A stretch of 64,000 nt of DNA from positions 4,083 to 68,082 of the forward strand of contig UQQZ01000001.1 of NCBI GenBank assembly GCA_900543305.1, given 5' to 3'. Every line of letters begins with the position of its first letter. Within the stretch, counting starts at the first letter, position 1. Below, in pieces: positions 14,271 through 40,493 of this stretch. A model generated the notes under the pieces. It made no database searches. It was not told where the DNA came from and saw nothing but the letters and a program-made list of their open reading frames with translations. The DNA is from an uncultured Oscillospiraceae bacterium. GTDB lineage: Bacteria > Bacillota > Clostridia > Oscillospirales > Acutalibacteraceae. A program made the translations under genes and the position numbers.

Positions 14271-15698
14271 CTATTTCTTCTTTTTTGAGGGAACCAGAAC
14301 CATACACGGCAGTTTTTTGGAAATGTGCCTGAGTTTGCGATTAAACTGCTCACAACAGAAAGAAAGGTAATGATAGGAGGGCTGATCCAGGTCATTGGGA
14401 ATGGACACTTCTATCTGCCGATGGGATCCATTGCCTGCCTTCCCCATTACCAGTTGATGGTAGTACTCGTGGACATTCCGCAAGAAGAAATACTCCTCAC
14501 AGTTTGTTCGAAAGATGGAACGGGACCCATTCTGAAAGACGATATCTATCAGCTTTTGCGGCGTAAAAGATGCTGAAAGAAAATGGAATGACATCAGCCT
14601 GTCGTTCTGAAAAAGGCGCTGGGCATCCAGAAATGCCTTTTCTTTACAATTTGAGCTTACCTGTTTCCATGGCTTAAAAAAGGATCCCTGTCTTTGGAGC
14701 ATTCTGCTGTCTTCCCATGGAGACGACAGACCACACCACCGAACCAATTCCATTTGGTAGCGGCTGTAGTCTTCCAGATGTCGGGGAGGTCGAATTTTCT
14801 GGGTCATGACAATCATGGCGGTAAACCTTGTCATAGGATCAAACAGAGGATGACGATAAAAGGGAAGCATAGGCGCGTTCAAGGCCAAATCACAGATAGC
14901 GAAAAATCCCAGCTTAAAGGACATAAAGTCCTCGGGATTTTGGAGATCGAATTGATGAGTTTTCCAGTAAAGCTGTAAAGGAACCAGATAATTGGCTTTT
15001 TCCCTGGTCAGCTGCTGGGGCTTCATCATCGCACAAAACGCCTCGTCTGCAACAGAATCAAAAAAATACTGGGTGAGATGAGCTTGGCTCTCCAAAATGG
15101 AGGAAACATTGATTTGAAGGCCGTCGTTCATAAATGAAGCCGCTAAAAGCTGTTTGGCTATCTGTGGGTCCACCTCCGGGGATAAAAAATCAGCCCTTAG
15201 CTTCTTAGGAATATGGGAAAGCCTACTTAAAAAAAGGTCCAGCTCTCCATAATAATCCAGAAAACCATTGCCTTTCATGATTCGGCACAGGTATTCGGTC
15301 AGCTCATCAAAGGTTCCTGTCAATTGGATCCTGACAATTTCCCCCAGAGCCCAATCGTAATAATATGTATTTTCCTTTGGCAAACCGTTTCTTGCCATAA
15401 TTTGATGGACAACACCATAGGGATCCACCTTATCTTCAAGGCAGCAATTCACCAGGGATACCATCGCATTTCTTTGAAATGTTTCCACCAGGTTCATGTA
15501 ATAGCCAAAAATCGTGGTTGCGTACTGAATGAGATGGCAATGTTCATGGAGCAATGACCGCAATGGAGGGGACAGAATCCCTTCTGTTTCATGGAGCATA
15601 AAACTCTCGTTTAGTTCTTCTTTCGTGCAAGCTAGGTCTATCTGATAAACAAAGCTGTCAAAGGTTGACCGCACGGAATCGCCCACTTTAGGATCCAC
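14271..15698 (-). CDS. Uncharacterised protein of about 476 aa with a single HExxH (LLHEHCHLIQ) motif; putative metallopeptidase-like effector
   Basis: ORF 14271..15776 (TTG) trimmed to the GTG at 15698, which lies 9 nt after GGAGG. I recognise no family beyond the HExxH motif. The gene overlaps the trypco2 gene by 11 nt. Confidence 0.6.
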   Translation of the reverse strand: MDPKVGDSVRSTFDSFVYQIDLACTKEELNESFMLHETEGILSPPLRSLLHEHCHLIQYATTIFGYYMNLVETFQRNAMVSLVNCCLEDKVDPYGVVHQIMARNGLPKENTYYYDWALGEIVRIQLTGTFDELTEYLCRIMKGNGFLDYYGELDLFLSRLSHIPKKLRADFLSPEVDPQIAKQLLAASFMNDGLQINVSSILESQAHLTQYFFDSVADEAFCAMMKPQQLTREKANYLVPLQLYWKTHQFDLQNPEDFMSFKLGFFAICDLALNAPMLPFYRHPLFDPMTRFTAMIVMTQKIRPPRHLEDYSRYQMELVRWCGLSSPWEDSRMLQRQGSFFKPWKQVSSNCKEKAFLDAQRLFQNDRLMSFHFLSASFTPQKLIDIVFQNGSRSIFRTNCEEYFFLRNVHEYYHQLVMGKAGNGSHRQIEVSIPNDLDQPSYHYLSFCCEQFNRKLRHISKKLPCMVLVPSKKKK

Positions 15699-16044
15699 GA
15701 GGATCCCCCTCCATTTCGGGGAACCTTCCACTGGACCGCTGACTCCTGGCGGGCGAGAATAGATTATCTTCGTCAAAATTGGGCAGGCAGGTCACGTCAA
15801 ATTTCAGTTTGATGGTTTGGGATTTTTTGGAAACAGAGGAAAGGTCTGTTTCCCCATTGAAAAGAGGAATGCCAATCTTCAATTTTCCGCTTGCATCTTG
15901 TTGGATCACAGTGGTCAGTTCAATCTCCATACCCGAGGTCTGAAAGAGAATCGGAGCACCCTCTTGTTCTCTCCGGTCTTCGGACTGAATCAATTCCCGT
16001 TGTACGGACCGTAAAATCTCACTCAACGGCAGAAAAGTTTCCAT
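15688..16044 (-). CDS. Trypco2-family (trypsin co-occurring domain 2) small protein
   Basis: LSEILRSVQRELIQSE...APILFQTSGMEIELTTVIQQDASGKLKIGIPLFNGETDLSS...SQTIKLKF follows the trypco2 pattern: an N-terminal helix, F..xxxEhEh, a G-rich turn and a terminal hKLxF. SD GGAAAGGGGAAA lies upstream of the ATG at 16044. Confidence 0.7.
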   Translation of the reverse strand: METFLPLSEILRSVQRELIQSEDRREQEGAPILFQTSGMEIELTTVIQQDASGKLKIGIPLFNGETDLSSVSKKSQTIKLKFDVTCLPNFDEDNLFSPARSQRSSGRFPEMEGDPRGS

Positions 16045-16509: not shown

Positions 16510-17082
16510 TTAAGAATACCGGTCAATTTTCTGCTGGATTTCCTCTGAGGTAATTTCACGAGGAACATGATCCACAAACTCGGTGCCGTACCAGGTGGTA
16601 TAACCATCCCAGGTATAGGAATCCGGATCCCATCCCGAGTTGTACCCTTCTTTGGTCGACCTGGCAGAAAATTGGTAGCGGTCGGTCCACAAAGCTGTCA
16701 GGTGGAGTCGAATTCCGGGACGGTATCCCAGCTCCCAATTGTGCTCGTTTGGCCGCTCTTCTTCAAAAAGCTCAAATAGCTCCTGGATAAATTCCTCGTC
16801 CCGGACAATGGGCTGTAACTGGGAGAGAATCCCATAGGCGGTTTCTTCATCAAAACCAAATCGATATACGGTAATCGCCACCCCAGCCTCATAAGTAAAT
16901 TGACAGGTTACTACAGAAAGAGGATATTTGCTGCGAACCTTGGTTTCGAATTCTTTCATGCCGGAAAGGGTCAGGGGGCGGTACCAGATGCACCCCGAAA
17001 GGCTGACAGCCAAAAGCAGGGTCATTCCAAGCAACCAGGCTACCCGGAGAACGGTTCCTCTTCGCCGAAAACACTTTGTCAT
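16510..17082 (-). CDS. Lipoprotein of unknown function
   Basis: Trimmed to the ATG at 17082. Signal peptide plus lipobox: LLLAVSLSGC. No canonical terminator lies between it and the helicase gene 99 nt upstream. Confidence 0.65.
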   Translation of the reverse strand: MTKCFRRRGTVLRVAWLLGMTLLLAVSLSGCIWYRPLTLSGMKEFETKVRSKYPLSVVTCQFTYEAGVAITVYRFGFDEETAYGILSQLQPIVRDEEFIQELFELFEEERPNEHNWELGYRPGIRLHLTALWTDRYQFSARSTKEGYNSGWDPDSYTWDGYTTWYGTEFVDHVPREITSEEIQQKIDRYS

Positions 17083-17181: not shown

Positions 17182-19440
17182 TCAAACTGGAGGTCGCGCC
17201 GGCCCTGAAGGAATATCTATCCAGCTTTGTACCCGGTGCTTCATACCTTCCACATCCAGCACACCCAAGGCAAACCCCTTGCGTACCAGCTCTTCCGGCA
17301 CAAACTCATCATACTTCTCAAAAACAGGCACCTCTTTGGGGTACACCAGTTCCAAAGGGTCAAAATCTTTAGCGGCTTCTTCCGCCACAATCCGGTAGAA
17401 ATCCTCCTCGCCCACCTTCATGGTAAACTGAAGATAGTAAGGCCGGGCAGGGCTCATGCCTCTGAGCCCCAGCCTTTTTCCACAGCGAATTTTCAAAAAA
17501 CGCTCCAAAGCCAAAAAAGCGTAGCTTCCCAACCAGGGGAACAGGGCCCACATATTCCCTCCAAGATGCACCAGCGGGTGACCTTCCATTCCGGAATTTT
17601 GAAAACTGACTCGGGCATCCTCCAGCCGGCACACTGCATGCTTCATCAGGTAAGGATACTGTTTCTGCTCCTGCAATACCCTGTACATTCGTTCCAGGAT
17701 GTGGGTATGGATGTCTCCCGGCACATCCCCAAAGTATGCCGGAATATTGCCTTTTACCAGTGTGCAGTAGACCTCTCGTTTCTGGTGATCCACCTCATCC
17801 ACCGCCCAGACTCTGCCGGCAATGGCGATTTTATCCCCAACAGGCGGCGGCTTAACAATGGTCCCCAGCTCCTCGGAACCTGTGCGGACGGAATACTCGA
17901 TATTCTCCCGGAAAACCGCGTAAAACTTGTAGTTGTTCACAACCCGCTCTCCCGCAAGACCCACAATCAAACCACCATTTTCCGTCTGCGCAATGTGATC
18001 GATTTCCAGCAAGTGCCGAAGAAGGATTCTGTAATCTTCCTGGGTGATCCGATGGAAACAGGACAGACTGAGCACCCGAGAGGCAAGTTCTCCCGGTGTC
18101 ATCTCGCCGCAGGAAGCCAGTGTGCTCATGGTCTGGTGATACAGCAGACTAAAGGGCAGCCGACCTGTCCGGGGAGGTTCCACAAAGCGTTCCTCCAGAT
18201 ACAGCTGCACCAGGGCAATTCCCTGAATCAAATACCAGGGAATCATGTCAGGCAGCATGGCACGGGGTTCCGGGTGATCTTCCCGCATGACAAACCACAT
18301 TTCCGAAGGGTCGCCCCGCCTGCCGGTCCGGCCCATCCGCTGCAAAAAGCCGGATACCGTAAAAGGAGCGTCTATCTGAAAGGCCCGTTCCAGTCTGCCG
18401 ATGTCAATGCCCAACTCCAAGGTGGCGGTGGCACAGACGGACATCAGGGAATCGTCATCCTTCATCTCCACCTCCGCGCTTTCCCGATAAGAGGCGGAAA
18501 GGTTCCCATGATGGATGAGAAACCGGTCAGGCTCGTGGTTGACTTCACAATATTGTCTCAGGCTTTGACATACAGCTTCACACTCTTCCCGGGAATTGGT
18601 GAAGACAAGACATTTCTTGCCCCGGGTGTGCTCAAAAATGTATCCGATGCCCGGGTCCGCCGCTTTAGGAGCAGTGTCCCCCGGAGGTTCCAGCAGAGGA
18701 GCATGGGGCACATTCAGCTTACCCTCATCTGCCTGGGGGGCCGTATTAAAAAAATGCTCCATGGAAAGCCGCCACACCTCCCTGCCCCCTTCGCAGGCGG
18801 GAATCCTGGTTGGGCGGCTGCCCCCGGAGGCCAGAAACTTTCCCGCAGCCTCCGGATTGCCGATGGTGGCCGACAATCCAATCCGCCTGGGATCACATCC
18901 GGCGGTCCTGCACATCCGCTGAATCAGGCAAAAGGTCTGCATTCCCCGATCTCCTCGCAGCAGAGAGTGAATCTCATCGATGACCACAAACCGCAAGTCC
19001 CCAAACAAGGCGGCAATCTCCATATGCTTGTTGATCATCAAGGACTCCAGGGATTCCGGAGTGATCTGCAATATGCCCCGGGGTTTTTGCAGCAGTTTCC
19101 GCTTTTGAGACTGGGCCACGTCTCCATGCCAGCGGGTGACAGGGATCCCCGCCTCCTGACACAACTGGGAAAGCCTGCCAAACTGGTCGTTGATCAGGGC
19201 TTTCAACGGAGCGATATACAATACTCCCACGCTTTTGGGAGGATCCTCGTCCAGCAAAGTCAGGATGGGGAAAAAAGCTGCCTCGGTTTTTCCGGACGCC
19301 GTAGACGCCGTCAGAAGCACATTGTCATCGCTGCCGAAAATGGCCTCCCCGGCAGCGTTCTGCACCCCACGCAACGCCTGCCAACCGGAGCGGTAAATGT
19401 AATCCTGGATAAATGGCGCGTACCGATCATAGATGTTCAT
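17182..19440 (-). CDS. sngC: Lhr-like DEAD/DEAH-box (SF2) helicase; Shango SngC-like
   Basis: Motif I TASTASGKTEAAF, motif II VVIDEIHS, motif III LSATIGN, HHGNLS, TATLELGIDIG, and motif VI QRMGRTGRR. Its start overlaps the upstream stop (ATGA, 19437..19440). Confidence 0.85.
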   Translation of the reverse strand: MNIYDRYAPFIQDYIYRSGWQALRGVQNAAGEAIFGSDDNVLLTASTASGKTEAAFFPILTLLDEDPPKSVGVLYIAPLKALINDQFGRLSQLCQEAGIPVTRWHGDVAQSQKRKLLQKPRGILQITPESLESLMINKHMEIAALFGDLRFVVIDEIHSLLRGDRGMQTFCLIQRMCRTAGCDPRRIGLSATIGNPEAAGKFLASGGSRPTRIPACEGGREVWRLSMEHFFNTAPQADEGKLNVPHAPLLEPPGDTAPKAADPGIGYIFEHTRGKKCLVFTNSREECEAVCQSLRQYCEVNHEPDRFLIHHGNLSASYRESAEVEMKDDDSLMSVCATATLELGIDIGRLERAFQIDAPFTVSGFLQRMGRTGRRGDPSEMWFVMREDHPEPRAMLPDMIPWYLIQGIALVQLYLEERFVEPPRTGRLPFSLLYHQTMSTLASCGEMTPGELASRVLSLSCFHRITQEDYRILLRHLLEIDHIAQTENGGLIVGLAGERVVNNYKFYAVFRENIEYSVRTGSEELGTIVKPPPVGDKIAIAGRVWAVDEVDHQKREVYCTLVKGNIPAYFGDVPGDIHTHILERMYRVLQEQKQYPYLMKHAVCRLEDARVSFQNSGMEGHPLVHLGGNMWALFPWLGSYAFLALERFLKIRCGKRLGLRGMSPARPYYLQFTMKVGEEDFYRIVAEEAAKDFDPLELVYPKEVPVFEKYDEFVPEELVRKGFALGVLDVEGMKHRVQSWIDIPSGPARPPV

Positions 19441-20762
19441 AGGGTAAACTCCGCATATTTTTGATCTATCTCTTGGGAAACCGCCTGGGTGTAGGTGAAC
19501 TCATCCGATTGAAGCAGATCCTCCAAGGTCATGGAAGGGTTCTGATACAGCAGATCCAGCAGCTCGATAAAGTCCCGGATCACTTCCCGAGGGGTGATGT
19601 TCTGATCCGCCCCAATGCGGCTATACTCCAGCTTGATAAATCCTGCCAGCTCCTGAGTGGTAAGACTTCTCTGGTGGCCGTAAAGATCCTGGTGCATCTC
19701 CCAGAGCTTCTCACAAAGCACCGTCATCTCCTCGGGAGTCAGGGGATCCAGATGGATGACAGGGGCCAGAAGGTCCCGGGTTCCGGGCTTGGAGAATTTC
19801 CCCTCTGCCAAACGGGAACGAAGCGCTTCATAACTGTATACGCCCCGGCGCTTATCTTCAATGGCCTGGGGCGTGGCACCCATGAGAAATCCCAGGTATC
19901 GGGCTTTGCCCTGCAAGGTGTCGTTGTAGAGGGTGAGAAGCTTTTCATAGTTGTACTGACGGGTAATAGCGTTGGGAATCTTATATAGGTTTACCAGCTC
20001 ATCGATCATCACCATCATACCCGCATAACCGGCCAAGCGGAAAAACACTGCAAAGATCTTCAAATACTCATACCAGTTGTCATCGGTAATCAGCAGGTTG
20101 ACCCCCAGTTCTTCCTTCGCCTCCCGTTTGGTGGCATACTCGCCCCGAAACCAACGCACCACCTTCAGTTTTGTCTCATCGTCCCCGTCCACATAGGCGT
20201 GGTAATACAGGGAAAGAAGCCTGGCAAACTCAAAGCCGTGTACCAGTTCGCTCAAGGAGGCGATCACCTGATAAATTCTTCGGTCCACCTCCTTGGTCAG
20301 GGCCGGATCGCCCGGTTCCAAACCGGTCTCCTGAACAGCTTCCCCTTGAACACTGCTGATCCACCGGTCCAGCACCAAGGTCAACGCGCCGCCTTCCGGC
20401 TTCGTCTTGGTGGACAGGTTGCCGATCAGCTCCCGATAGGTGGCTAATCCCTGGCCTCGTGTTCCTTGCAGACGTCTTTCCGGAGACAGGTCTGCATCCG
20501 CCACCACAAAGCCCCGGTCCATCACATAGTTCCGAATGGTCTGGAGCAGAAAACTTTTACCGGAACCGTACCGCCCCACAATGAAACGGAAGGAGGCGCC
20601 CCCCTCCGCAATGATGTCCACATCGTGAAGCAGGGCCTCAATTTCACTTTTCCTGCCCACGGTGATATAGGGCAGGCCGATTCTGGGAACTACACCCCCT
20701 TTTAAGGAATTCAGTATAGTCTGGGCAATCCGCTTGGGTACCCTTTTCTTTTCTTCACTCAT
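19437..20762 (-). CDS. sngB: DUF2791/BrxC-BrxD-type P-loop ATPase; Shango SngB-like
   Basis: Trimmed to the ATG at 20762 (MSEEKKRVPK...). Walker A VGRYGSGKSF and Walker B MVMIDELV. It overlaps the upstream stop by 8 nt. Confidence 0.8.
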   Translation of the reverse strand: MSEEKKRVPKRIAQTILNSLKGGVVPRIGLPYITVGRKSEIEALLHDVDIIAEGGASFRFIVGRYGSGKSFLLQTIRNYVMDRGFVVADADLSPERRLQGTRGQGLATYRELIGNLSTKTKPEGGALTLVLDRWISSVQGEAVQETGLEPGDPALTKEVDRRIYQVIASLSELVHGFEFARLLSLYYHAYVDGDDETKLKVVRWFRGEYATKREAKEELGVNLLITDDNWYEYLKIFAVFFRLAGYAGMMVMIDELVNLYKIPNAITRQYNYEKLLTLYNDTLQGKARYLGFLMGATPQAIEDKRRGVYSYEALRSRLAEGKFSKPGTRDLLAPVIHLDPLTPEEMTVLCEKLWEMHQDLYGHQRSLTTQELAGFIKLEYSRIGADQNITPREVIRDFIELLDLLYQNPSMTLEDLLQSDEFTYTQAVSQEIDQKYAEFTL

Positions 20763-22665
20763 CCGATCTATCCTCCAGCATATCCAGAATGTCTTCCCTG
20801 TAATCCTCAACCACTGCAAGTGTACTGCCATCAAATTCCAACACGGTGTCTCCCAATCGGTCCAGAAACGCTTCGTTGATGGTATCTGCTACCACGGAAG
20901 CCATCAGGTGATGGGATCGGAGAATGGGCTCCGGTGACTCTCCTTGCAGAAGAGCCCGTAAGATCTGGGAATGTATCTGATCCAACCCGGGAACATCCGT
21001 GCCTTCTGAATGGGTCTCCTGGGAAACGACAGGGGAATTTTCCTGGGGCACAGGCAACTCCGGCCTGTCCTCCGGGATCTCTTGTCTTTCCTCTTCCGTG
21101 AGAAGGCTGTCCCGGGTAAGGACCGCATCCCGCCGAATCTGATCCAGATTGGAAAGGTCAATGACAATTTTGGGCTTGGCAGCTTCCAGCCGTTCCCGTT
21201 GGTCTTGTTCCACCACCGCTTCCACAAAAGGCGTCGCCCAAGCCTCCTCTGGTTTTTCCCGGAGATACCGTCCTGTTTTCAGATATTTTCTCAGCTGCCG
21301 GTCCGCCTCATGGAACAGGGCCTGAAACTTGTTTTTATTATAATACAGTTTGTTATACTCCTCTACCTGCCAGCTGCCCTGCTGACAACGATAAGTCCGG
21401 CAGGGATCGAGAACATACACTCCGTCCGGGTGCGGTTGTTCTTCCCAATAAACCGCGTTACCCAAGGGATACCAGGAAAGAAACTGCTTTTCCCCAAAAC
21501 AGACGGCAAATAGATTTTTGCCGTTTTCGTGGTAGTGTTTCCAGGCAGTTCGCCAAACCTGGGCAAATAGATGCTTCCCACCGGATTCTCCTTTTTGCAG
21601 CACAGGGGATTCCCCCAGCTTTTTCCCTTCAAAGGTGCAAATAGCGGAGAAAAGCTCCTGGTCCCCGGCCTCTTCAGGATGGGCCAATTTCTCTAGAGCA
21701 TCGTCCTGCCGTAAAAGTTCCGGCTCCACATATTGCCGGGCCAGTTCCGGGGAAACGCCTTGAACCACAGCAAATTCCAGCATCCAATTGCGAAGATTGC
21801 CCTCCATGGCCGGATCCCCGATTCCGGAATTCACAAACTTTTCCTGGAAATTCCGAAGTTTCTCCAAGCTGTCCTCCGGGGAGCTTGCTCCAATCCCGTT
21901 GAGAAGTTCATACACATAGAGATAGGCAAAGGATGCTGCAATGGGCGTGTATTTCCCTTTCCGAACCTGAGTTCTCCAGGTAAAATAACCCCGAAGCTGC
22001 CGGACATTTAAATCGTGATAGGTGGGGAAATACCGCTTGTAATCCCCGGTCCACGGTTCGTTGTCCTCGTAGTCCTCCATAAACTTGCCCTGTTTCCAGA
22101 AATTATAACATTTCTCCCGGAAAGACTCGTCCCCGTGTTCATACAGACGAAGCATTTCCTGAATCTTTCCCGGAACCCTCACACCGAGAGGGGGAAATGA
22201 TTTTTGAACCGGAGGAAAAGGTTCGCTGGGATAAATCACTGTCTGTTGAACAGGCGCATGCTGCAGTACAATCGTACAGCCTTCCTGGTCCTCAGAAGAA
22301 ATCGCTCGGTCAAACAGCTGGAATACCACCTGAGGATTTGTCCCATCCTCAAAAGTGATGCCCACCCATTTGGGGCCTTTCATGCGAAAGGGCTTTGACA
22401 AGAAGGGCTGGGGCTGTTCGTATAAAACCTGCTGGCCACATTTGAGGTCACACCGCTGGATTTCTTCGCCGCAATCCTCATCCCAGTGACGCATGAGTAG
22501 AGCCACCCATTTTCCCGTGTGTGGGTGTGTCAAAACGGAAAAGCCAGGAAAATCTGCCCATTTGTGCTGCTCCTGCATGTGGTATTTCTCTCGAACATAA
22601 GCTGCCAGTTCAGACAGTTCCAAGTTTCTCCCCCCTCCCAGGCCCTTCCCGCCTGCCTCCTGCAT
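20755..22665 (-). CDS. sngA: TerB-N and TerB-C domain protein with an extra N-terminal MmcQ/YjbR-like domain; Shango SngA-like
   Basis: TerB-N signature: YHDLNVRQLRGYFTWRTQVRKGKYTPIAASFAYLYVYELLNGIG. TerB-C-like C-terminus: IVIDLSNLDQIRRDAVLTRDSLLTEEE ... LMASVVADTINEAFLDRLGDTVLEFDG...VVEDYREDI. Confidence 0.8.
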   Translation of the reverse strand: MQEAGGKGLGGGRNLELSELAAYVREKYHMQEQHKWADFPGFSVLTHPHTGKWVALLMRHWDEDCGEEIQRCDLKCGQQVLYEQPQPFLSKPFRMKGPKWVGITFEDGTNPQVVFQLFDRAISSEDQEGCTIVLQHAPVQQTVIYPSEPFPPVQKSFPPLGVRVPGKIQEMLRLYEHGDESFREKCYNFWKQGKFMEDYEDNEPWTGDYKRYFPTYHDLNVRQLRGYFTWRTQVRKGKYTPIAASFAYLYVYELLNGIGASSPEDSLEKLRNFQEKFVNSGIGDPAMEGNLRNWMLEFAVVQGVSPELARQYVEPELLRQDDALEKLAHPEEAGDQELFSAICTFEGKKLGESPVLQKGESGGKHLFAQVWRTAWKHYHENGKNLFAVCFGEKQFLSWYPLGNAVYWEEQPHPDGVYVLDPCRTYRCQQGSWQVEEYNKLYYNKNKFQALFHEADRQLRKYLKTGRYLREKPEEAWATPFVEAVVEQDQRERLEAAKPKIVIDLSNLDQIRRDAVLTRDSLLTEEERQEIPEDRPELPVPQENSPVVSQETHSEGTDVPGLDQIHSQILRALLQGESPEPILRSHHLMASVVADTINEAFLDRLGDTVLEFDGSTLAVVEDYREDILDMLEDRSDE

Positions 22666-22712: not shown

Positions 22713-22741
22713 ATTATAATCGGGTTTTCTCTCCGCTGCAA
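22713..22741 (-). promoter_or_regulatory. Putative sigma-A promoter of the TerB/ATPase/helicase operon
   Basis: On the minus strand, TTGCAG (22741..22736), a 17-nt spacer, then TATAAT (22718..22713). It lies about 48 nt upstream of the ATG at 22665. Confidence 0.5.
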
Positions 22742-22918: not shown

Positions 22919-23242
22919 ATGCTGGGACAAATTGTAACGATCACCATCGATAGAGAAATAGGGACATTCCATCCGGAGCACCCCAACCTTTTCTATCCCA
23001 TCAATTACGGCTATATTCAAGGTACCTTCGCCCCCGACGGTGAAGAGCAGGACGCCTATCTATTGGGGGTCAACGAACCTGTCAAGGAATTTACCGGGAA
23101 AGTGATCGCCATCATACACAGGAGGAACGACGTGGAGGAAAAATGGGTTGTTGCGCCTGTGGAACAATCGTTTACCAAGGAAGAAATCATAGAAAAGGTC
23201 CGTTTTCAAGAACAATACTTTGATTCCATTGTCCTTATGTAG
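22919..23242 (+). CDS. Short inorganic-pyrophosphatase-like protein
   Basis: YPINYGYIQGTFAPDGEEQDAYLLG ... IHRRNDVEEKWVVAP resembles the family I PPase core. AGGAGG SD; extended -10 TGGTACAAT upstream. Confidence 0.6.
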   Translation: MLGQIVTITIDREIGTFHPEHPNLFYPINYGYIQGTFAPDGEEQDAYLLGVNEPVKEFTGKVIAIIHRRNDVEEKWVVAPVEQSFTKEEIIEKVRFQEQYFDSIVLM

Positions 23243-27405: not shown

Positions 27406-27824
27406 TTTTCTTTTCACCCCTACTATTTCTTACTTTAAAAATAATTCTATTATGGTGGAATGCAACAATAGCACCAAGAACATTCATAATCAGATCATTC
27501 GTTTCGAAACATCCTCACATCATACAATATTCGGATATTATTTTGGTTTTTCTTAGACGAACTGCATTTGAAAAGTCATCCGAAATTAAAAAAATATTGT
27601 TCCATAATTTAAGAACAACGTTTCCGAACACAAAACACTTCCAACTTTACTAATATTTCTGTTTCTGATGGTCTTGAAAAAATATAATATACAATACCAG
27701 CAAATATTACAAAGAAGCTCCACATCTACACAGAAAATGTACTTAAATCTGTATGCTCCTTCAGTATGCTCATCCCAACCGCAATGAATATCACTATGGC
27801 TAAAAACAGATAAACATACAACAT
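27398..27824 (-). pseudogene. Degraded VanZ-like gene (several frame changes and stops)
   Basis: GAGGAG SD plus the ATG at 27824 give MLYVYLFLAIVIFIAVG..., which stops after 32 codons. Other frames carry MWSFFVIFAGIVYYIF..., and a C-terminal ETNDLIMNVLGAIVAF that matches the VanZ C-terminal motif. Confidence 0.4.
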
Positions 27825-27854
27825 GACTATGCTCCTCAAATTCTACTTTTAAAT

Positions 27855-29060
27855 TTATATTCTTGATTGACGTTCCTGACGTACCTTTCGTCTTTTCCGT
27901 TCAACAATCCATGGAGCGATTTTCGTAAACAGTACTCTGATTTTCTGAGAATGTGATGTTCCCTTTCTATAATCTTTCATTATATCCAGAAAATCTTGTC
28001 CCTGATTTAATCGTTGAAAAAATTCTTCTCTTTTTTGATTTTCCTTTGTTGGCTCAATCAGATTATGGTTTTCTCTTACTGCTCGTTCACGATCAACTAA
28101 TGTCAACTCCATTATTTCCTGCATCTTCAAAATCAATGCATTTCCTTTTTCAGAATTAACTACGATTAGTGAACTACCTTTTTTGTCATCATATGAAGGA
28201 TTCACTGATTTACTTCCCCAGAAGTCACCAATTGTCAGATCCGCCGGACGTTTAATTTCTGAATTAGCATATTGACAAGAATAGCAAACAGGTCTGTAAA
28301 ACATTGCTCTCAAAAAACCAGACATATAGAAATCCTGACCCCAAGCCTGATGTTTCCACTGTTTGTCATTTCCAAAGGCTGTTCCTATTTCCCAATCACC
28401 CCAAAAGTAGCTTTTATCTCTAAAGGAAAACTTGCAAATATCAAAGCCTTCTTTTTTTTGGAGACTTCTTAAATAAGAGTCAAAAACTTTTTGGCTTGGA
28501 ACTCCATGGCAAATCAAATCTACTGTATATAACCTGTCTGGTTTATCGCCCAAATATGCATATAGACCTGATACCTGGCACGCTGTTCCACTAAACAGGA
28601 CGGTCTTTCCTTCATTTAAAAATCTTTTTACTTTTCCATATATATCACCAACATTACTTTGTAAGTACTTAGATTTTCTAAAAATATCTATTTCATCACC
28701 ATTTACACACCAACGATGATGCACTTTCAGTTCATCATCATAAGTTGCTCCACAAATGATTGCATCATCATCAAGAACATTACAAATAGCCGAAAATGCT
28801 CCGCCTGATGAACTTTTCATCAATATGGTTTCATCTTTTATTTTTCCACCCCAAAACTCTATTGCCCCTTGATTTACATAATCATTTCCGTTTTGAGGAC
28901 ATATTTTCATACAAATATCGCAATGAATACAAATATCATTTTGTATATCCGGATATAAAAATCCTTCTTCATCCGGTTTCATCTCAATTGCGTTTTGGGG
29001 ACACTTTGCTGCACAAGCTCCGCAACCTGTACATTCTTTTTTTTCTTTTAATACTAACAC
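27855..29060 (-). CDS. 4Fe-4S ferredoxin plus coenzyme F420 hydrogenase/dehydrogenase beta-subunit-like protein (cps-associated)
   Basis: CTGCGACAAKCP and CIHCDICMKICP clusters, followed by a FrhB/FdhB-like C-terminal part. This is the usual partner of polysaccharide pyruvyl transferases. Confidence 0.75.
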   Translation of the reverse strand: MLVLKEKKECTGCGACAAKCPQNAIEMKPDEEGFLYPDIQNDICIHCDICMKICPQNGNDYVNQGAIEFWGGKIKDETILMKSSSGGAFSAICNVLDDDAIICGATYDDELKVHHRWCVNGDEIDIFRKSKYLQSNVGDIYGKVKRFLNEGKTVLFSGTACQVSGLYAYLGDKPDRLYTVDLICHGVPSQKVFDSYLRSLQKKEGFDICKFSFRDKSYFWGDWEIGTAFGNDKQWKHQAWGQDFYMSGFLRAMFYRPVCYSCQYANSEIKRPADLTIGDFWGSKSVNPSYDDKKGSSLIVVNSEKGNALILKMQEIMELTLVDRERAVRENHNLIEPTKENQKREEFFQRLNQGQDFLDIMKDYRKGTSHSQKIRVLFTKIAPWIVERKRRKVRQERQSRI

Positions 29061-29067
29061 TTCATAA

Positions 29068-30030
29068 TCACCGCCTAAGCTTCTTCTTCAAATTTCTCCA
29101 TTTTAATTGGAAATACTGTGGATAAATTAGCTTGTCTTTTGTATATCTATTAACTAATTCTTTTGTAATTTCACCCTCAAACGGCATTATCCTATTAGGA
29201 ATAACCAAAAAGGAATCACATTCTGCAATATCTTCAAGCTGAATATTTCTTTTTTGGAAATGAAAATAGCGAAACTCCTCTACCACTAAAGCATCAGCAT
29301 TATTCAGCGCATATCGGTATAATTTTCCATCATTCCAATAGAATATTTGCTTAATAATATTCTCTGTTTTTACACTCCTATTCCTTTTACTCGCGGAACC
29401 ATAGTCATATAATGATCTCCTAAATAAAAATGAATATGGATTTATATCCGCAATTTTATAATCAAAATATGTATTTATGCCACTTTTTTCAGCAATCAAA
29501 TTTATGTTTAACCCATCCGAAGATTCATCAAATATATGATTTTCTGCATCCGCTAATATCTTCCAATATGTTTCCGGAAAATCAACTTGCTTCATAAACA
29601 ATCTGTTCATCTCATAATTATTCTTGAATAAAGTCATATGTCCATGGACAAATAATTTATCATAACCGGCTTCAATTGGAATACATCTACTCAGATCTCC
29701 AAGCACAATATCAATGTCACAATATCCCCAATACAGATATTCTTTTATTTCATCTTCAAATATGTACCCATATGTTGGCTTGAAATCACATAATTTTCTT
29801 GGCGTTTTTAATCCTAAGGTGAATGAGAACTTTTTTTGAGCTTTTTCCACCAGCTCAGCAAAAGACATAAATACTATTTTGATGTTCTCAGATATAGATG
29901 TCACTGTATTATCGTCTGTAATTACCCAGAAATCATACTCCGAATTTGCTTTTGCGGTTTTTGACCACACAGAAAAATAATGTGGTAATTTCCCAAAATA
30001 CGGAATAAGAAAGACTGCTTTTTTCATCAC
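29068..30030 (-). CDS. Hypothetical cps-locus protein, possibly glycosyltransferase-like
   Basis: Long AT-rich ORF in operon context. The N-terminus KKAVFLIPYFGKLPHYFSVW recurs in polysaccharide loci. I cannot name the function. Confidence 0.55.
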   Translation of the reverse strand: MMKKAVFLIPYFGKLPHYFSVWSKTAKANSEYDFWVITDDNTVTSISENIKIVFMSFAELVEKAQKKFSFTLGLKTPRKLCDFKPTYGYIFEDEIKEYLYWGYCDIDIVLGDLSRCIPIEAGYDKLFVHGHMTLFKNNYEMNRLFMKQVDFPETYWKILADAENHIFDESSDGLNINLIAEKSGINTYFDYKIADINPYSFLFRRSLYDYGSASKRNRSVKTENIIKQIFYWNDGKLYRYALNNADALVVEEFRYFHFQKRNIQLEDIAECDSFLVIPNRIMPFEGEITKELVNRYTKDKLIYPQYFQLKWRNLKKKLRR

Positions 30031-30038
30031 TATACCTC

Positions 30039-31142
30039 TTATCGTAATGCACGTTTCAAATACACATACGATTCTTCTCTTTTTTCTTCCAATATCCCCG
30101 AAACTTTCACATAGTCAATATCTGACAATTCTTTATATTCCTCTCCAGAATACCTACGCAGATTTCTCTCTTGTAAATCAAACATTTGAAAAACACTATC
30201 GAACCTAGCATTATTTTCTGTTATTGGATAACTCAAAAATTGTTTTTCAAAGTTAATGGAAAAAATAGTTCCATGGAAGGAATTGGTAATCACATAAGCA
30301 GCGTTTAAGAATAATGAAACAAATCTTTCTGGAGTTACAAACTTTTCAATTACATCATCGTTGGAATACTTTTCAAATCCAACAGAAATCCTCCGTATTT
30401 TTAAGCCTTTCTTTTGTGCAATCTGGCGTGCAATATTCAAAATAGATTTTGCATTTCCAAAATAGTACACCAGTAAGTACGATTCTTCCTCGACCTGTCC
30501 ATGTGAAAAATATCTCCATTCTTCTTGTCCTAACAACAATGTTGGATCAAGTACACAGACTGGTCGATATCCAAGGTTTTTCAAGATCGGAATACTCGAA
30601 AGCTCACGAACAGAAATAAAACAGTAATCTTTCAAATATTCTTTTATTATTTTACCTTCTTTATCAGTCAAATCAGGTATACCAATACTAGAAGCATATG
30701 ATATTTTCTTTCCGGTCACCCCATCCAGAAAGTAAACCGGGTTAAAGCCGCCATTTGCTCTGGGATTCCATATTTGATCACTGCCAGAGCAATATATATC
30801 TGCCTTCGGAAAGTTCCATCTTTTCTCTTCGTCAAGCGTCACGGGTTCTGATAGCTTTAACCTTCTCTCCTGAAAATCCCTAAATAGTCTTGTTGTAATA
30901 TGTTTGGGATATAGTGTTTTAGCTAAATATGCAAGTTTAATAATTGGGTTTTTTTTAAATTTGTTGTTTATATTAAGTAAATAACCTTTTATAGTCTGAT
31001 TAGGCAATTTGTAATCAATTATTTCTACTTCATTTCCCATTTCTTCAAAATAATGTTGTAGCGCGTATGTCTGAAGAACGGCTCCATAATTTCTGGCAGC
31101 GTGCATAGTAATAATTGCAACCTTCATTTCTCCTGTCTCCAT
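30039..31142 (-). CDS. Polysaccharide pyruvyl transferase family protein
   Basis: MKVAIITMHAARNYGAVLQTYALQ is the typical N-terminus. The real start may be the ATG at 31127. Confidence 0.8.
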   Translation of the reverse strand: METGEMKVAIITMHAARNYGAVLQTYALQHYFEEMGNEVEIIDYKLPNQTIKGYLLNINNKFKKNPIIKLAYLAKTLYPKHITTRLFRDFQERRLKLSEPVTLDEEKRWNFPKADIYCSGSDQIWNPRANGGFNPVYFLDGVTGKKISYASSIGIPDLTDKEGKIIKEYLKDYCFISVRELSSIPILKNLGYRPVCVLDPTLLLGQEEWRYFSHGQVEEESYLLVYYFGNAKSILNIARQIAQKKGLKIRRISVGFEKYSNDDVIEKFVTPERFVSLFLNAAYVITNSFHGTIFSINFEKQFLSYPITENNARFDSVFQMFDLQERNLRRYSGEEYKELSDIDYVKVSGILEEKREESYVYLKRALR

Positions 31143-31784
31143 TTATTCTGTATGATCATTTAAATATTTATCAATATTTAAATAGCGGCTATATGATGTA
31201 ATATCGTTTTTAACATAGTCATCATGTTCAAATTCAGTAAACTGAATTGTACAATCAGTACCGTCAACAACATGAGCAACAAAACACAACTTATTTTTAA
31301 ACGAAAGTTTATCAAATGCCTTGATATGGTCCGCTGTTGCTCTATTCTGATCGTTAAATTTCACAATCAAATTATCCCAGTTCATTCTGGCTTTTCTACG
31401 GTTCCATTTTTCGTATGCCTCTTTTTCGCTTTTGTAATGCAAAAAGACGATCTCAACATCATCCAGTAATCCTATCGGGTAATATCTATCTCTTTCTGTA
31501 TAAAAATCATAATATTTTGATTTTTTTTTGGGAATGAATTTCAAATCCAGAGAAAGATAATATTCCAGATTTTGAACAAATTTCAAATACTCATCTGCAA
31601 AGAACGTTAAGCCGATGGTTGGGGACGTGTATGGAAGACCATATCGTTGATAGATTTTCCCTCCCCAACAATTATTGGAAATTATTGTAAAATTTTTATT
31701 CTTTAATAAAAAGCTCCGCCTATACCACTTTAAGAAATTATCAATCGTATGTTCTTTTATCCATTTTATTTGTCCTTTGACCAT
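31143..31784 (-). CDS. DUF1919-domain protein (EPS-locus associated)
   Basis: FTIISNNCWGGKIYQRYGLPYTSPTIGL motif. Trimmed to the ATG at 31784, with a GAGGAG SD. Confidence 0.7.
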   Translation of the reverse strand: MVKGQIKWIKEHTIDNFLKWYRRSFLLKNKNFTIISNNCWGGKIYQRYGLPYTSPTIGLTFFADEYLKFVQNLEYYLSLDLKFIPKKKSKYYDFYTERDRYYPIGLLDDVEIVFLHYKSEKEAYEKWNRRKARMNWDNLIVKFNDQNRATADHIKAFDKLSFKNKLCFVAHVVDGTDCTIQFTEFEHDDYVKNDITSYSRYLNIDKYLNDHTE

Positions 31785-31867
31785 AACTAAATCTCCTCGC
31801 ATTAAGGTTACCCTTTTCCCAGAAAACCTTTTTATTTTTCTCTTGACACATCGCCACATTTCTATCA

Positions 31868-33427
31868 TCAATGAATTTTTCTTTTTAATATCCGAAATAT
31901 GAGATTTTTCAATTCAAGAAAATCTCGTTTTCTTCCATATATAAGGAATATATATGATATTATGAAAATAGTAGAATACAATATTGTAATAAAGAAATAC
32001 AATACCGGGCTCAAGTTCAAAGCAATAACTTTAGAGCGAATAATGAAAAGAAGTCCTATTCCTAAAAAATCATATACTACATACCTAATAAATGTGAAAT
32101 AATACCTGAATGCTTTCTTATTAAACACTAATTCATATGTATACATAGAATCGATCCAAAATGTCGTCAATAACCTACTAATGCTTGTTGCTAGAACAAT
32201 GCCTGTTATTCCCATAATTTTTGCTAAAACAATAGACATGAACACATTAATAATTATTGTAAGTAATGGTCTGTACCTCCCTACTTTAAAAACACCACAA
32301 GCATCTTTAAAGGTATCAATTGGTATCATATATCCAGCAAGAATAAAGTCCATCACAAACACAAACACCGTGAGATCAGAAAAAATAAATTCTTCGCCTA
32401 ACCATAATGTGATAAAGGGATTCAGCATTTGAAATAACATCATGCCCCCTGCCCCATATAAAACAGAAGATGCCAAAAAAATTTTATCGAATATTCTTTC
32501 TCTTTTCTCACTCTCTGCGGACACATTTAGATTACCAACACTCGCGGTTAACGATGTAAATATTAAACCAATAAAACCTGTAACCGTTGAAATCAAAAGG
32601 TGATAATTTGAATATATTCCAACAATAGATACACCAATAAAGGCAGATATTATTATATTATCAGTTGAGTTCAGCATTACCGCACCCATTTTAAAAAGCG
32701 CAATACTGAAAACACTATTTCCAATGCTCTTCTTATCATCAACTGAAAGAGATTTACACTTAGAGGCCTTTATATAAGGATATTCTTTTTCAACAATTTT
32801 ATATACCCAATATTGTTGAGCATTCTGAGTCAAAAACTGAATTGCTAAATATAATATATAATTATGATAAAATAGCAACAGCACAATTTGAACACAATTT
32901 GTAATAAAATAACAAATTATATTTGTTTTCTCAATTTTATGTTTTTTTTGCGACGCAACCAATAAGACTTGCCTATAAGAAAACAACAAATAACTTGACG
33001 CAATATTTACGACATAAATTACATATGCGAAATATAAGTCGGTGGTCAAATGATAGTCTGAAACAATAATCTGTAAAAAAGGAAGGATTAGTAAACCTGT
33101 TCCCAGGATAACAAAACCTATTATCTTATAAACTCTCCGATAAAACTGAACTATTGATTTAATCTTTTCAATATTTTTTTCTGCAATCGGCTTATATAGT
33201 GTAAAAGTAACTGCCGTACCGATTCCTAGTTCGCTTAAAGCCAAATAGCTTAATATACTTGCATATACTCCGTTAATGCCAAGTATTTCTTTACCTAGCA
33301 CATATATAAATACTGTTCGAGATAAGAACGAAAAGATAATCTTTATCAACTGGCTGATTATGCTAAAATTTATATTTAGTATTGAGTTTTCTGTTCTTGA
33401 CTTCTCTGCCATAGCATTCCTCTTCAA
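31868..33427 (-). CDS. wzx: Wzx-type oligosaccharide flippase (MOP superfamily)
   Basis: 519 aa with about 12-14 hydrophobic helices. Position within the cps cassette supports the call. Confidence 0.75.
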   Translation of the reverse strand: MKRNAMAEKSRTENSILNINFSIISQLIKIIFSFLSRTVFIYVLGKEILGINGVYASILSYLALSELGIGTAVTFTLYKPIAEKNIEKIKSIVQFYRRVYKIIGFVILGTGLLILPFLQIIVSDYHLTTDLYFAYVIYVVNIASSYLLFSYRQVLLVASQKKHKIEKTNIICYFITNCVQIVLLLFYHNYILYLAIQFLTQNAQQYWVYKIVEKEYPYIKASKCKSLSVDDKKSIGNSVFSIALFKMGAVMLNSTDNIIISAFIGVSIVGIYSNYHLLISTVTGFIGLIFTSLTASVGNLNVSAESEKRERIFDKIFLASSVLYGAGGMMLFQMLNPFITLWLGEEFIFSDLTVFVFVMDFILAGYMIPIDTFKDACGVFKVGRYRPLLTIIINVFMSIVLAKIMGITGIVLATSISRLLTTFWIDSMYTYELVFNKKAFRYYFTFIRYVVYDFLGIGLLFIIRSKVIALNLSPVLYFFITILYSTIFIISYIFLIYGRKRDFLELKNLIFRILKRKIH

Positions 33428-34443
33428 GTTAAATTTGATTTTATTCTATATACAGCTTGCTTAGTTCGTCTTTTGATTATATAATTAGCAATACATATAC
33501 GGCTTCGTGACATTCTATCAAGCACAGAACTATTGCAATATTTTTTAATATACGCAGCTATATCTTTGCGATTCAGAAAATTAAAAATATTGTTGACGCA
33601 TTCTATTATTCCTATTTTTTGTTTAGTATACATATTTACACACTGCATAGGAAACCCTATCAAAAGGTCATGATAAAAAATTGACCAGTTAATTTCAGTT
33701 GTTCGACTAATCGTTCTCTTTAGTACATCTATAACACATTCCCATGATGTTATATCTTCAAGTTGACTACTTTTGGATAGTGAGTCTTTATGTATAAACT
33801 GATGATAAAGAACTGCTTCAATCAGTTCTATATTTTTACAGTGAGAAATATACTCCATACAAAAACATAAATCCTCCATCATCTTAATTGTTTCTGGAAA
33901 TTTAATATTACAATGTTCAATAATAGTTTTTTTGAAAAGCTTACATACAGGTCCTCTTGTTCCTGTATATTTAAAAAACGCATATGGATTTCTCTGCAGT
34001 TCCTCTTTTCGTACTATAGTGTGCTGGTACCGTTCCTTACCAATACACTCTACCTTGTCCTTCCCATCAGGAACTTCATCATAGAATCTGCCACAAAGAA
34101 TTAAATCTAAATCTGAATTCGCCTCTGCCGCTTTAATCATCTTCTCAAGATAATCAGATTCCCAATAGTCATCACAATCAAGGAATGTAATATATCTACC
34201 CTTTGCTACTGACAAACCTCTGTTTCTAGCGCATCCAGGTCCAGGTTTCATCTCCTGAAATAAGACAACTTTTTTTGTAAATTCAGCATATCTCTTACAA
34301 ATCGCATAGCTACGGTCATTTGAATTGTTGTCAATCAGCACAATTTCAAATTCCTGATAAGTTTGGTTTAGTAAAGACTCCATACAGCGTTCAATATATT
34401 TTTCTCCGTTATATATTGGTATTATTATTGAAATATTAACCAT
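33424..34443 (-). CDS. Family 2 glycosyltransferase
   Basis: ISIIIPIYNGEKYIERCMESLLNQTY ... DCDD (DxD). Confidence 0.85.
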   Translation of the reverse strand: MVNISIIIPIYNGEKYIERCMESLLNQTYQEFEIVLIDNNSNDRSYAICKRYAEFTKKVVLFQEMKPGPGCARNRGLSVAKGRYITFLDCDDYWESDYLEKMIKAAEANSDLDLILCGRFYDEVPDGKDKVECIGKERYQHTIVRKEELQRNPYAFFKYTGTRGPVCKLFKKTIIEHCNIKFPETIKMMEDLCFCMEYISHCKNIELIEAVLYHQFIHKDSLSKSSQLEDITSWECVIDVLKRTISRTTEINWSIFYHDLLIGFPMQCVNMYTKQKIGIIECVNNIFNFLNRKDIAAYIKKYCNSSVLDRMSRSRICIANYIIKRRTKQAVYRIKSNLT

Positions 34444-34456
34444 TTTTTATCACTCT

Positions 34457-35536
34457 TTATCGCCAAAAAGAATAACCATATGTACACAAACCATTGTGTG
34501 GGAATAGATACAACATTAGTGCAGTCAAAAGTAAAAAAATAACTCCTTTAAATAACCGTCTCTGATCTTCCACAATGGCATATTGCAATTCTGGCAATAG
34601 AAGTGTGAAAAATACGAAAAAATATCGTCCCTGACGGGCTGATGCTGAAACCGCTAGAGCAATTATAAAAAAGAAAGTCGTTAAAAACATCGCATCCACT
34701 AAACTCGGAAACAATGAGACGCTATTCGTCTCGCATGCATCTATTGTACTTTGCTTAATAATAGTATTGTAATAGGTAATGCTAAATAGCAATACAAGAG
34801 CAGCAATTAACATCCGGGAATAGGCTCCTGTTGAACCTACTTGATATGCATTAAAAAAACGATCCACTAAAATCTGTCCAATTTGATATCTGAAAATATA
34901 GGCAGAAAAAACCCCAACAATATATACCAATTTCTTTGCTGCTTGATTTTTTATCAGCTCCATTAAATATATAATCAAAAAAGCCCATGCAGATCTATGA
35001 AAAAAGCCTCCCCCTATAACTAATACAAGTGCAAAAATTTTTAAAATTTTTCTATCAGACTGAAATAAAATATACGACGAATATACAAAAAAATATGCTA
35101 CATTTTGTCTCATTCCTGTCATCGCAAAAAGGATAAATTCCATCGTGCTAAATGCATAGAATGACAAAACACAATCTTTCGAGTATTTATAAATAATTAT
35201 TCCAAGAGGAATAATCGAGATACAAGCACCTATAGTTAGAAAAATCCTTGGATCACTAGTTATTTTAGCTATAAAATAAGTATACCATCTAAAACCAATT
35301 TCATAAACGTTTCTGGTAAGAGCACTTTGTGGATTATTAACTACCGATCTAAAATAATTCACATAGTTCTGTGTATCATTGCCCACAGATTCTCCTCGAA
35401 GGGAAACAAAGAGTAATATCTGTAATGTATTTAAAATGCAAACATATTTTCTTCTTTTATCTATATCTTTTGTTACGGCGAATATTATTACATCTACCAA
35501 TATAATCAAAAAGGCATTTATATAAAATGGAATCAT
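34457..35536 (-). CDS. wzy: EpsG/Wzy-type polysaccharide polymerase
   Basis: 359-aa polytopic membrane protein with an EpsG-like layout, located between glycosyltransferase genes. Confidence 0.65.
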   Translation of the reverse strand: MIPFYINAFLIILVDVIIFAVTKDIDKRRKYVCILNTLQILLFVSLRGESVGNDTQNYVNYFRSVVNNPQSALTRNVYEIGFRWYTYFIAKITSDPRIFLTIGACISIIPLGIIIYKYSKDCVLSFYAFSTMEFILFAMTGMRQNVAYFFVYSSYILFQSDRKILKIFALVLVIGGGFFHRSAWAFLIIYLMELIKNQAAKKLVYIVGVFSAYIFRYQIGQILVDRFFNAYQVGSTGAYSRMLIAALVLLFSITYYNTIIKQSTIDACETNSVSLFPSLVDAMFLTTFFFIIALAVSASARQGRYFFVFFTLLLPELQYAIVEDQRRLFKGVIFLLLTALMLYLFPHNGLCTYGYSFWR

Positions 35537-36678: not shown

Positions 36679-36683
36679 AAGTC

Positions 36684-39010: not shown

Positions 39011-39021
39011 TCTTTCAATCC

Positions 39022-39870: not shown

Positions 39871-39888
39871 CGTTTTACTCCATTTCTT

Positions 39889-40491: not shown

Positions 40492-40493
40492 TC

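Follow-up and report, generated by a model that had tools for sequence, protein, structure and literature searches.

Shango is a widespread defense system of three genes, sngA, sngB and sngC, whose homologues have been found experimentally to be anti-phage in Escherichia coli (bioRxiv 10.1101/2022.05.11.491447) and in Pseudomonas aeruginosa PA14 (PMC10250203). We found no published mechanism for it in the literature searched up to 2026. Two described systems contain parts that resemble its components. In type 2 BREX (Pgl), BrxD has been described as an AAA+ ATPase of the ORC/Cdc6 type, tightly linked with its partner BrxHI, a helicase that it is proposed to load or activate, and BrxHI has been described as a superfamily 2 (SF2) helicase with a winged helix-turn-helix, a beta-barrel, and an alpha/beta domain similar to the C-terminal domain of Lhr (PMC12839542). 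Lhr itself is a 3'-to-5' translocase on single-stranded DNA (ssDNA) that unwinds RNA:DNA duplexes (PMC5758891). Here, we describe a 64,000-nucleotide stretch, referred to as the window, from an uncultured Oscillospiraceae bacterium of the human gut (positions 4,083 to 68,082 of contig UQQZ01000001.1, assembly GCA_900543305.1). A reading of the letters alone, referred to as the original prediction, had placed a Shango-like operon here and had described such systems as anti-phage and of unknown mechanism, all of which agrees with our searches.

Profile searches and gene order show that the window carries a complete Shango (SngABC) operon on the chromosome, with intact catalytic motifs and, as far as its sequence can tell, apparently functional. 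The best overall explanation, toward which we lean by a little, joins this identity to a mechanism of direct immunity in which SngA would act as a sensor, SngB as a loader and SngC as a helicase. The operon consists of three minus-strand genes, with coordinates and overlaps as originally predicted:

20755-22665, minus strand: sngA, longest open reading frame (ORF) from ATG 22665, 636 aa, or 622 aa from TTG 22623
19437-20762, minus strand: sngB, 441 aa counted from ATG, BrxD-like (DUF2791) ORC/Cdc6-type AAA+ ATPase
17182-19440, minus strand: sngC, 752 aa, Lhr-core-like SF2 DExH helicase

The sngA stop and the sngB start share 8 nt (ATGAGTGA), and sngB and sngC share 4 nt (ATGA); these overlaps suggest translational coupling.

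All three proteins were recovered by the PADLOC models of Shango, namely, SngA by PDLC03958 (1e-82, aa 58-630), SngB by PDLC03959 (7.4e-190, full length), and SngC by PDLC03960 (2.8e-280). The runner-up families, BrxD for SngB (1.3e-46) and BrxHI for SngC (1.1e-124), both score far below the Sng models. In Pfam, the first protein matches TerB_N (PF13208, 4.4e-26) and TerB_C (PF15615, 3.3e-26), the second matches BrxC_BrxD (PF10923, formerly DUF2791) over its whole length (2.7e-168), and the third matches DEAD (2.6e-28) and Helicase_C (1e-17) and has a weak Lhr winged-helix match. No NCBIfam model was passed by any of the three. The TerB and DUF2791 profiles on which the original prediction had staked the identity were therefore found, and because the three genes are also co-conserved (see below), we assign the locus to Shango. 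Components and gene order are as in the Shango of E. coli and PA14 (Millman et al. 2022; Johnson et al. 2023). By the hidden Markov model (HMM)-based definition applied here, the window holds SngA, SngB and SngC as adjacent, co-directional, conserved genes. A looser description in the literature, by which SngA has a true TerB domain (PF05099), a membrane anchor at its N-terminus, or both, does not fit the window protein; because this trait lies outside the HMM-based definitions, its absence marks a subtype and is no ground for exclusion from Shango.

Other assignments were tried and rejected. Type 2 BREX likewise has a tightly linked ATPase-helicase pair, and SngB resembles BrxD and SngC resembles BrxHI, the latter over its full length; the predicted SngC structure also appears to hold BrxHI-like elements (helical bundles, a beta-strand region, and a C-terminal alpha/beta domain). 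However, type 2 BREX has a methylation module, whereas the partner in Shango is SngA, with no evident epigenetic self-marking. The core genes are absent: the 64-kb window holds no BrxC/PglY, PglX, PglZ, or PglW and no ORF longer than 752 aa, which excludes the large BREX core genes. The Sng models also far outscore the Brx models, and the NCBIfam model BREX_BrxD reaches 158 bits on SngB (3.8e-46) versus a cut-off of 350 bits. A Ter operon, in which TerB accompanies TerC, TerD, TerZ, or TerA, was rejected as well, as we detected no PF05099 in SngA and no Ter domain in the 19 neighboring ORFs scanned.

To place the operon among its relatives, an SngA-homologue profile was run on one genome per GTDB species, and the best 80 loci were kept and searched for SngB and SngC. 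At least 592 SngA-encoding stretches were confirmed in these species-representative genomes. Wherever at least 3.7 kb was available downstream of sngA, both sngB and sngC were present (66 of 66 loci), and the genes are strictly adjacent in the order A-B-C in 61 of these 66. The co-conservation that the original prediction had proposed to check was thus found throughout, and the commonest sngB-sngC junction among related loci is an overlap identical to that of the window. Among related loci with 1.5 kb or more downstream of sngC, no fourth gene recurs there, the best cluster occurring in 5 loci. In a separate search for SngA, 1388 proteins scored at E <= 0.001 among 8000 candidates, and the best 120 relatives are 44-58% identical over nearly their full length.

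The loci come from metagenome-assembled genomes (MAGs) assigned to Clostridia, Erysipelotrichales, Lactobacillales, Chloroflexi, Spirochaetes, Planctomycetes, Kiritimatiellia, Bacteroidales, and one archaeon. The nearest named relatives make the label "Clostridia-type" in the original prediction plausible, but the operon passes from phylum to phylum: SngB and SngC are 72-88% identical between copies in MAGs assigned to different phyla, which indicates frequent transfer. SngA has diverged far more than its partners. Across the 61 strictly syntenic loci, the proteins are a median of 48% (SngA), 80% (SngB), and 82% (SngC) identical to those of the window, and the divergence of SngA extends across all its domains (mean pairwise identity of 55-68%), with extremes in two linkers (38% and 17%). 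Between the window and a second strain of the species (L100), SngA is 97.3%, SngB 98.6%, and SngC 98.7% identical, a gap too small to address selection.

Mobility of the operon bears on whether its target is phage at all. By tblastn, SngB homologues occur on 696 PLSDB plasmids, including 449 of Klebsiella and 144 of Salmonella, and 542 of the 696 are classed as conjugative by prediction. Shango could thus serve in competition between mobile elements or exclude incoming conjugative DNA, whose single-stranded form on entry, with its free 3' end, would ideally suit an Lhr-type translocase; the frequent transfer of the operon also fits. However, the phenotypes reported from experiments are only anti-phage, and the window operon is chromosomal, with no tRNA genes in the window and no integrase or transposase among the neighboring genes scanned. 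We consider it quite unlikely that plasmids and other mobile elements, and not phages, are the main target, and such targeting would be compatible with anti-phage activity as well.

The feature that sets the window operon apart is the architecture of SngA, which comprises the following parts:

22291-22623, minus strand: YjbR/MmcQ-like "double-wing" domain, aa 15-125, by PDB profile and Foldseek
21523-22185, minus strand: TerB_N, aa 161-381, all-helical, by Pfam PF13208 (pLDDT mostly >85)
21211-21522, minus strand: middle region, aa 382-485, a predicted four-strand beta meander with helices, by AlphaFold2
20788-21210, minus strand: TerB_C, aa 486-626, split by a hypervariable disordered linker at aa 529-556, by Pfam PF15615

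The AlphaFold2 model of SngA has a mean pLDDT of 77.8, with both linkers predicted to be disordered: one between the YjbR-like domain and TerB_N and the other within TerB_C (aa 529-556, pLDDT <50), where mean pairwise identity falls to 17%. TerB_N carries the invariant motif YFPTYHDLNxRQLRGYFTWR. The middle region matches no Pfam family, is modeled at a pLDDT of roughly 82-96 save for one 10-residue block at 68, and occupies the position held by PF05099 in the SngA of Klebsiella and Sulfitobacter. In the window protein we detected no match to PF05099 (true TerB) at E <= 0.01 and no hydrophobic 19-aa segment, and hence no transmembrane segment.

The N-terminal domain was identified in two ways. 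A profile of 24 SngA homologues found a single solved protein in the PDB, PSPTO_3016 (2kfp/3h9x; E 1.8e-9), which matches profile residues 4-104 with the hallmark YjbR motifs aligned, and a Foldseek search with the AlphaFold2 model returned YjbR/DUF419 structures as its top four matches (3h9x, with a TMt of 0.81, 2kfp, 2fki, and 2a1v). Fold and hallmark motifs at aa 15-125 are thus shared with the YjbR/MmcQ family (PF04237; PSPTO_3016 and E. coli YjbR), whose members are small stand-alone proteins, whereas in SngA the domain is a divergent part of a defense protein. The family is regarded as DNA-binding, and fusions of YjbR to TerB-family proteins have been noted earlier (PMC7641849). The TerB_N/TerB_C core has no structural relative in the PDB or among the viral models of BFVD; only the YjbR-like domain was matched. 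Among bacteria of the gut and rumen, the YjbR-type subtype is common. About 10 of the 80 genome loci encode an SngA without the YjbR-like domain (among them L070, L057, L058, L060, L069, L072, L074, L076, and L079), and the L070 protein keeps the first ~20 residues and the residues after the domain, resembling a precise internal deletion.

We compared this architecture in detail with three plasmid loci from PLSDB, those of Klebsiella pKPN-498, Sulfitobacter faviae NZ_CP116427, and Bacillus cereus. The Klebsiella IncF plasmid copy serves as the enterobacterial example, as distinct from the validated E. coli and PA14 SngA proteins themselves. The four SngA versions are as follows:

Klebsiella pKPN-498: one N-terminal transmembrane helix, PF05099 present, no fourth gene, PADLOC SngA 1e-104
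Sulfitobacter plasmid: two transmembrane helices, PF05099 present, a PD-(D/E)XK nuclease as fourth gene, PADLOC SngA 4e-103
B. cereus plasmid: TM2 domain, PF05099 absent, no fourth gene, PADLOC SngA 8e-54
Window: YjbR-like domain, PF05099 absent, no fourth gene, PADLOC SngA 1e-82

TerB_N and TerB_C are common to all four, and the YjbR-like domain of the window sits exactly where the other versions hold their anchor. The order in the Klebsiella protein is transmembrane helix, TerB_N, true TerB, and TerB_C, whereas that in the window is YjbR-like domain, TerB_N, beta-rich insert, and TerB_C. Between the window and Klebsiella, SngB is 41% and SngC 31% identical, and the PADLOC Sng scores of the Klebsiella copy are comparable to those of the window. 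By these comparisons of domain content, lineages exchange the N-terminal module of SngA, carrying a membrane anchor, a YjbR-like domain, or nothing in its place, and the TerB_N/TerB_C core and the SngB-SngC pair are constant.

These architectures speak to membrane surveillance, which Millman et al. proposed for TerB-containing systems (bioRxiv 10.1101/2022.05.11.491447) and which was repeated in 2025. Under such a scheme, SngA would reside at or cycle to the inner face of the membrane, sense envelope perturbation or DNA injection, and activate SngB and SngC. The transmembrane segments or TM2 domain at the start of the Klebsiella, Sulfitobacter, and B. cereus proteins fit this scheme, and peripheral (amphitropic) binding of the window protein would be compatible with its sequence. 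However, the window SngA has neither anchor nor true TerB and carries a DNA-binding-type domain in their stead, and the subtype therefore argues against the only published idea, surveillance of the membrane through TerB. We regard membrane surveillance as a very unlikely account of the window system. YjbR-type SngA may instead define a distinct, soluble, nucleic-acid-sensing class of Shango in which the N-terminal module decides where SngB and SngC are deployed, a proposal that we hold to be doubtful. Speculatively, the two architectures could be unified if a membrane anchor placed the motor at the site of DNA entry and a YjbR-like domain placed it on phage DNA or RNA:DNA intermediates.

The ATPase and helicase motifs of the two remaining proteins are all intact. 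SngB has the Walker A motif GSGKSF (aa 66-71) and the Walker B motif MIDE (aa 252-255) named in the original prediction, and our search for solved relatives of SngB returned none, even at E <= 10. SngC contains every SF2 helicase motif that had been listed (SGKT at aa 49-52, DEIH at 155-158, SAT at 190-192, and QRMGRTGRR at 367-375), and none of motifs I, II, III, and VI varies among 53 diverse full-length homologues. A search for SngC relatives among 1.84 billion 50%-identity cluster representatives gave 1475 at E <= 1e-30. The protein is laid out as two RecA domains, a winged helix, a beta-barrel, and a C-terminal alpha/beta domain, and its AlphaFold2 model has a pLDDT of 91.2 and a pTM of 0.90. 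The description "Lhr-like" holds by both profile and fold. A profile of the 53 homologues matches Lhr-core 5v9x with an E value of 3.3e-65 over profile positions 27-562, covering the helicase, winged helix, and barrel, and 5v9x is also the best Foldseek match in the PDB, aligned over the whole length (E 1.1e-29, TMq 0.69), followed by MrfA, Hjm, and Hel308.

Given that, among solved structures, those of two repair helicases, Lhr and MrfA, come closest, and that the best NCBIfam match of SngC is the ligase-associated DEXH helicase, the operon could be a housekeeping DNA repair module with no part in defense. Several differences make this extremely unlikely. Likeness to Lhr (mycobacterial, E. 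coli, and Lhr-core 5v9x) spans the whole fold at an identity of ~20%, but SngC (752 aa versus about 1500 aa for Lhr) is without the 650-aa Lhr C-terminal domain, which is responsible for tetramerization and glycosylase activity. Lhr belongs to a damage-inducible repair operon, whereas SngC belongs to a mobile three-gene operon, and the patchy cross-phylum distribution with near-identical SngB and SngC is typical of mobile defense genes. The NCBIfam repair equivalogs fall far below their cut-offs on SngC (DEXH_lig_assoc, 200 versus 850 bits; PRK09751, 83 versus 1496 bits), whereas the SngC model scores 930 bits, and homologous operons are experimentally anti-phage. An Lhr repair operon was accordingly rejected, with the Lhr C-terminal domain absent and the curated cut-offs missed widely.

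SngC was also searched for a further effector activity beyond its helicase core. Its C-terminal 272 aa match nothing in Pfam, even at E <= 10, and outside the core there is no invariant cluster of acidic residues or histidines among the 53 homologues; because no such cluster lies past the helicase motifs, no hidden nuclease is seen. A lysine of the C-terminal domain, K709, is nearly invariant in these homologues, and its conservation fits the DNA-binding role suggested for the C-terminal domain of BrxHI (PMC12839542). In one human gut contig from the same species (L092, 1-1664; ERZ28627610), sngC is called as two pieces, a cut one of 157 aa and one of 384 aa, which may reflect a frameshift or pseudogene or else an assembly error.

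Relatives of SngC do occur together with nucleases. Seven relatives that are longer than SngC and share 34-37% identity with it across the full 730 aa (P0215, P0219, P0221, P0228, P0232, P0256, and P0268), bear C-terminal nuclease-type domains: an RNase_T exonuclease in three, PD-(D/E)XK in two, DUF2779 in one, and metallo-beta-lactamase/RMMBL in one. One of the RNase_T fusions also has WYL. The Shango locus of Sulfitobacter (NZ_CP116427, 6015-8239 of L088) keeps the A-B-C order and adds a fourth gene 3 nt after sngC for a PD-(D/E)XK nuclease of at least 741 aa that PADLOC does not recognize, whereas no nuclease gene follows sngC in the window; in this four-gene form, the nuclease could provide the effector missing from three-gene Shango. 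That helicases related to SngC are repeatedly fused or linked to nucleases supports the processing of nucleic acid as the outcome. Hachiman (HamAB) offers a functional analogy for a helicase as sensor or motor, being likewise an SF2-helicase defense system that surveys DNA (PMC12278908). However, HamB comes from another clade of helicases and has a nuclease, HamA, as its effector partner, whereas three-gene Shango has no nuclease but has an additional AAA+ ATPase and SngA.

The absence of a recognizable effector also weighs on how infection would end. In abortive infection, the SngB-SngC motor would act on both host and phage DNA or burn ATP so that the infected cell is arrested or killed before progeny are released. 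Many defense systems containing helicases and ATPases work in this way, and the operon encodes no marker of self and non-self, such as a methyltransferase. However, it also encodes no toxin, nuclease, or membrane effector, and in PA14, Shango protects liquid culture over a wide range of phage doses (PMC10250203). Because protection spans such a range, we favor direct immunity and consider abortive infection unlikely.

The proposed mechanism of direct immunity can be put together from these observations and from analogy with described relatives. SngA would be the sensing or targeting subunit, since it is the fast-evolving member of the three with an N-terminal module that is swapped between lineages; in the window, it would be soluble and placed on nucleic acid by its YjbR-like domain, and the TerB_N/TerB_C core common to all SngA would link it to the motor. 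By analogy with BrxD, SngB would serve SngC as a switch or loader that depends on ATP, and SngC, by analogy with Lhr, would translocate 3'-to-5' on ssDNA and unwind phage replication or recombination intermediates, possibly including RNA:DNA hybrids used for priming. Phage DNA replication would thereby be blocked directly without killing of the cell. As the operon encodes no nuclease, any degradation of the exposed DNA would have to be carried out by host nucleases. Taken by itself, this mechanistic part is tentative, and we rate it as somewhat more likely wrong than right.

Several observations count against the proposed mechanism. No nuclease or other effector is recognizable in SngA, SngB, or SngC, and the TerB_N/TerB_C core, having no structural relative, could hide an activity that has gone unrecognized. 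The Pfam YjbR family (PF04237) matches SngA below its cut-off (E 0.0079, 17.3 versus 30.1 bits), binding of DNA by this domain is suggested by its modeled fold, and the domain, which some lineages do without, cannot be central to the mechanism. The polarity and substrate of SngC would be those of Lhr, from which they are extrapolated at about 20% identity. As for defense by the window locus, it is likewise presumed from relatives: the phage-validated Shango systems are all proteobacterial, and the window SngA has no BLASTP match to that of Klebsiella at 1e-3.

Signals around the genes refine the annotation of the operon. The ORF of the first gene stands as originally predicted, but its start at ATG 22665 does not. 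Homologues start at the position of TTG 22623 (20 of the 24 aligned SngA homologues), and this codon follows a ribosome-binding site, GGAGGGGGGAG, with a GGAGG-type Shine-Dalgarno sequence; for both reasons, TTG 22623 is likely the true start. Several gene calls within the 90% cluster of SngA are also 622 aa long. The promoter proposed upstream fared less evenly:

22713-22741, minus strand: predicted candidate sigma-70-type promoter, -35 TTGCAG at 22741-22736, 17-nt spacer, -10 TATAAT at 22718-22713

Its -10 element is perfect, but its -35 element agrees with TTGACA at only three of six positions, so that "near-consensus" is true of the -10 element alone. It is absent from the sites listed by a consensus promoter scan of the region, which gave 8 promoter-like sites versus 5.7 +/- 2.2 in shuffled sequence, i.e., no excess.

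We found no intrinsic terminator 3' of sngC, and the next gene lies ~100 nt downstream. This gene, a minus-strand ORF of 190 aa (16510-17082), matches no family but carries a lipoprotein-like signal (…LLLAVSLSGC). With no terminator between them, it may be co-transcribed with sngC, and it was not found in 80 other Shango loci. On the plus strand, a 745-aa ORF (17227-19464) lies antisense to sngC and is codon-aligned with it. The antisense frame is open only because sngC has no TTA or CTA codons and a single TCA codon, and it is open in just 5 of 67 homologues; by codon content and conservation, we take it to be a shadow ORF and not a gene.

The same locus and gene order were found in several independent human gut metagenome samples (e.g., PRJEB1220, GCA_900527525.1). 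On one side, the operon is flanked by genes of polysaccharide biosynthesis (phosphoglucomutase, UDP-glucose dehydrogenase, and an epimerase) and on the other by a flavodoxin, a CMD-family gene, a cupin, and an aldo-keto reductase; within about 10 kb on each side, the neighbors are polysaccharide, redox, signaling, and unannotated genes. Each same-species contig that reached this position bore at least part of the operon, and no operon-free strain was seen; because every such contig carried it, the boundaries of an insertion cannot be drawn.

Some neighboring features stand apart from the operon. Between sngA and the phosphoglucomutase gene, a 107-aa plus-strand ORF (22919-23242) weakly matches inorganic pyrophosphatase over profile positions 29-94 of 153; it is kept in all strains seen and is probably a gene remnant. 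Downstream of the Shango neighborhood, at a distance of about 470 nt, lies a minus-strand pair of genes (14271-16044) that overlap by about 10 nt. The first encodes a 118-aa Trypco2 protein (trypsin-co-occurring domain 2, PF19631, 7e-11), and the second encodes a 475-aa protein with an HExxH motif (LLHEHCHLIQY) and no Pfam or PADLOC match. The pair is kept in all same-species strains seen, is not linked to Shango elsewhere, and may be an uncharacterized conflict-system pair with a metallopeptidase-like effector. Beyond the epimerase gene, a co-directional minus-strand block (about 27800-40500) has 30-35% G+C versus about 50% elsewhere. Gene calls for this block in L081 include a pyruvyl transferase, DUF6625, and an FrhB-like protein, and strain L100 has different genes at its position; the block looks like a horizontally acquired polysaccharide or capsule locus.

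The locus adds no new kind of system. It is a member of an under-described soluble subtype of Shango that the PADLOC models already detect. What our analysis adds to the original prediction is a YjbR-like domain in an SngA with no true TerB and no anchor, a complete Lhr-core-like SngC, the likeness of the pair to BrxD-BrxHI, the absence of a nuclease, and the divergence of SngA. Together, the swapped N-terminal module of SngA, the contrast between conserved SngB and SngC and a diverging SngA, and the repeated coupling of related helicases to nucleases constrain how Shango may work. The soluble proteins of the window should also be easier to purify than the membrane-anchored versions. If a soluble nucleic-acid-sensing class does exist, the window version, being soluble and without a nuclease, could be the most tractable entry to the mechanism of Shango, and it could show that an Lhr-type helicase blocks phage replication without a dedicated nuclease.

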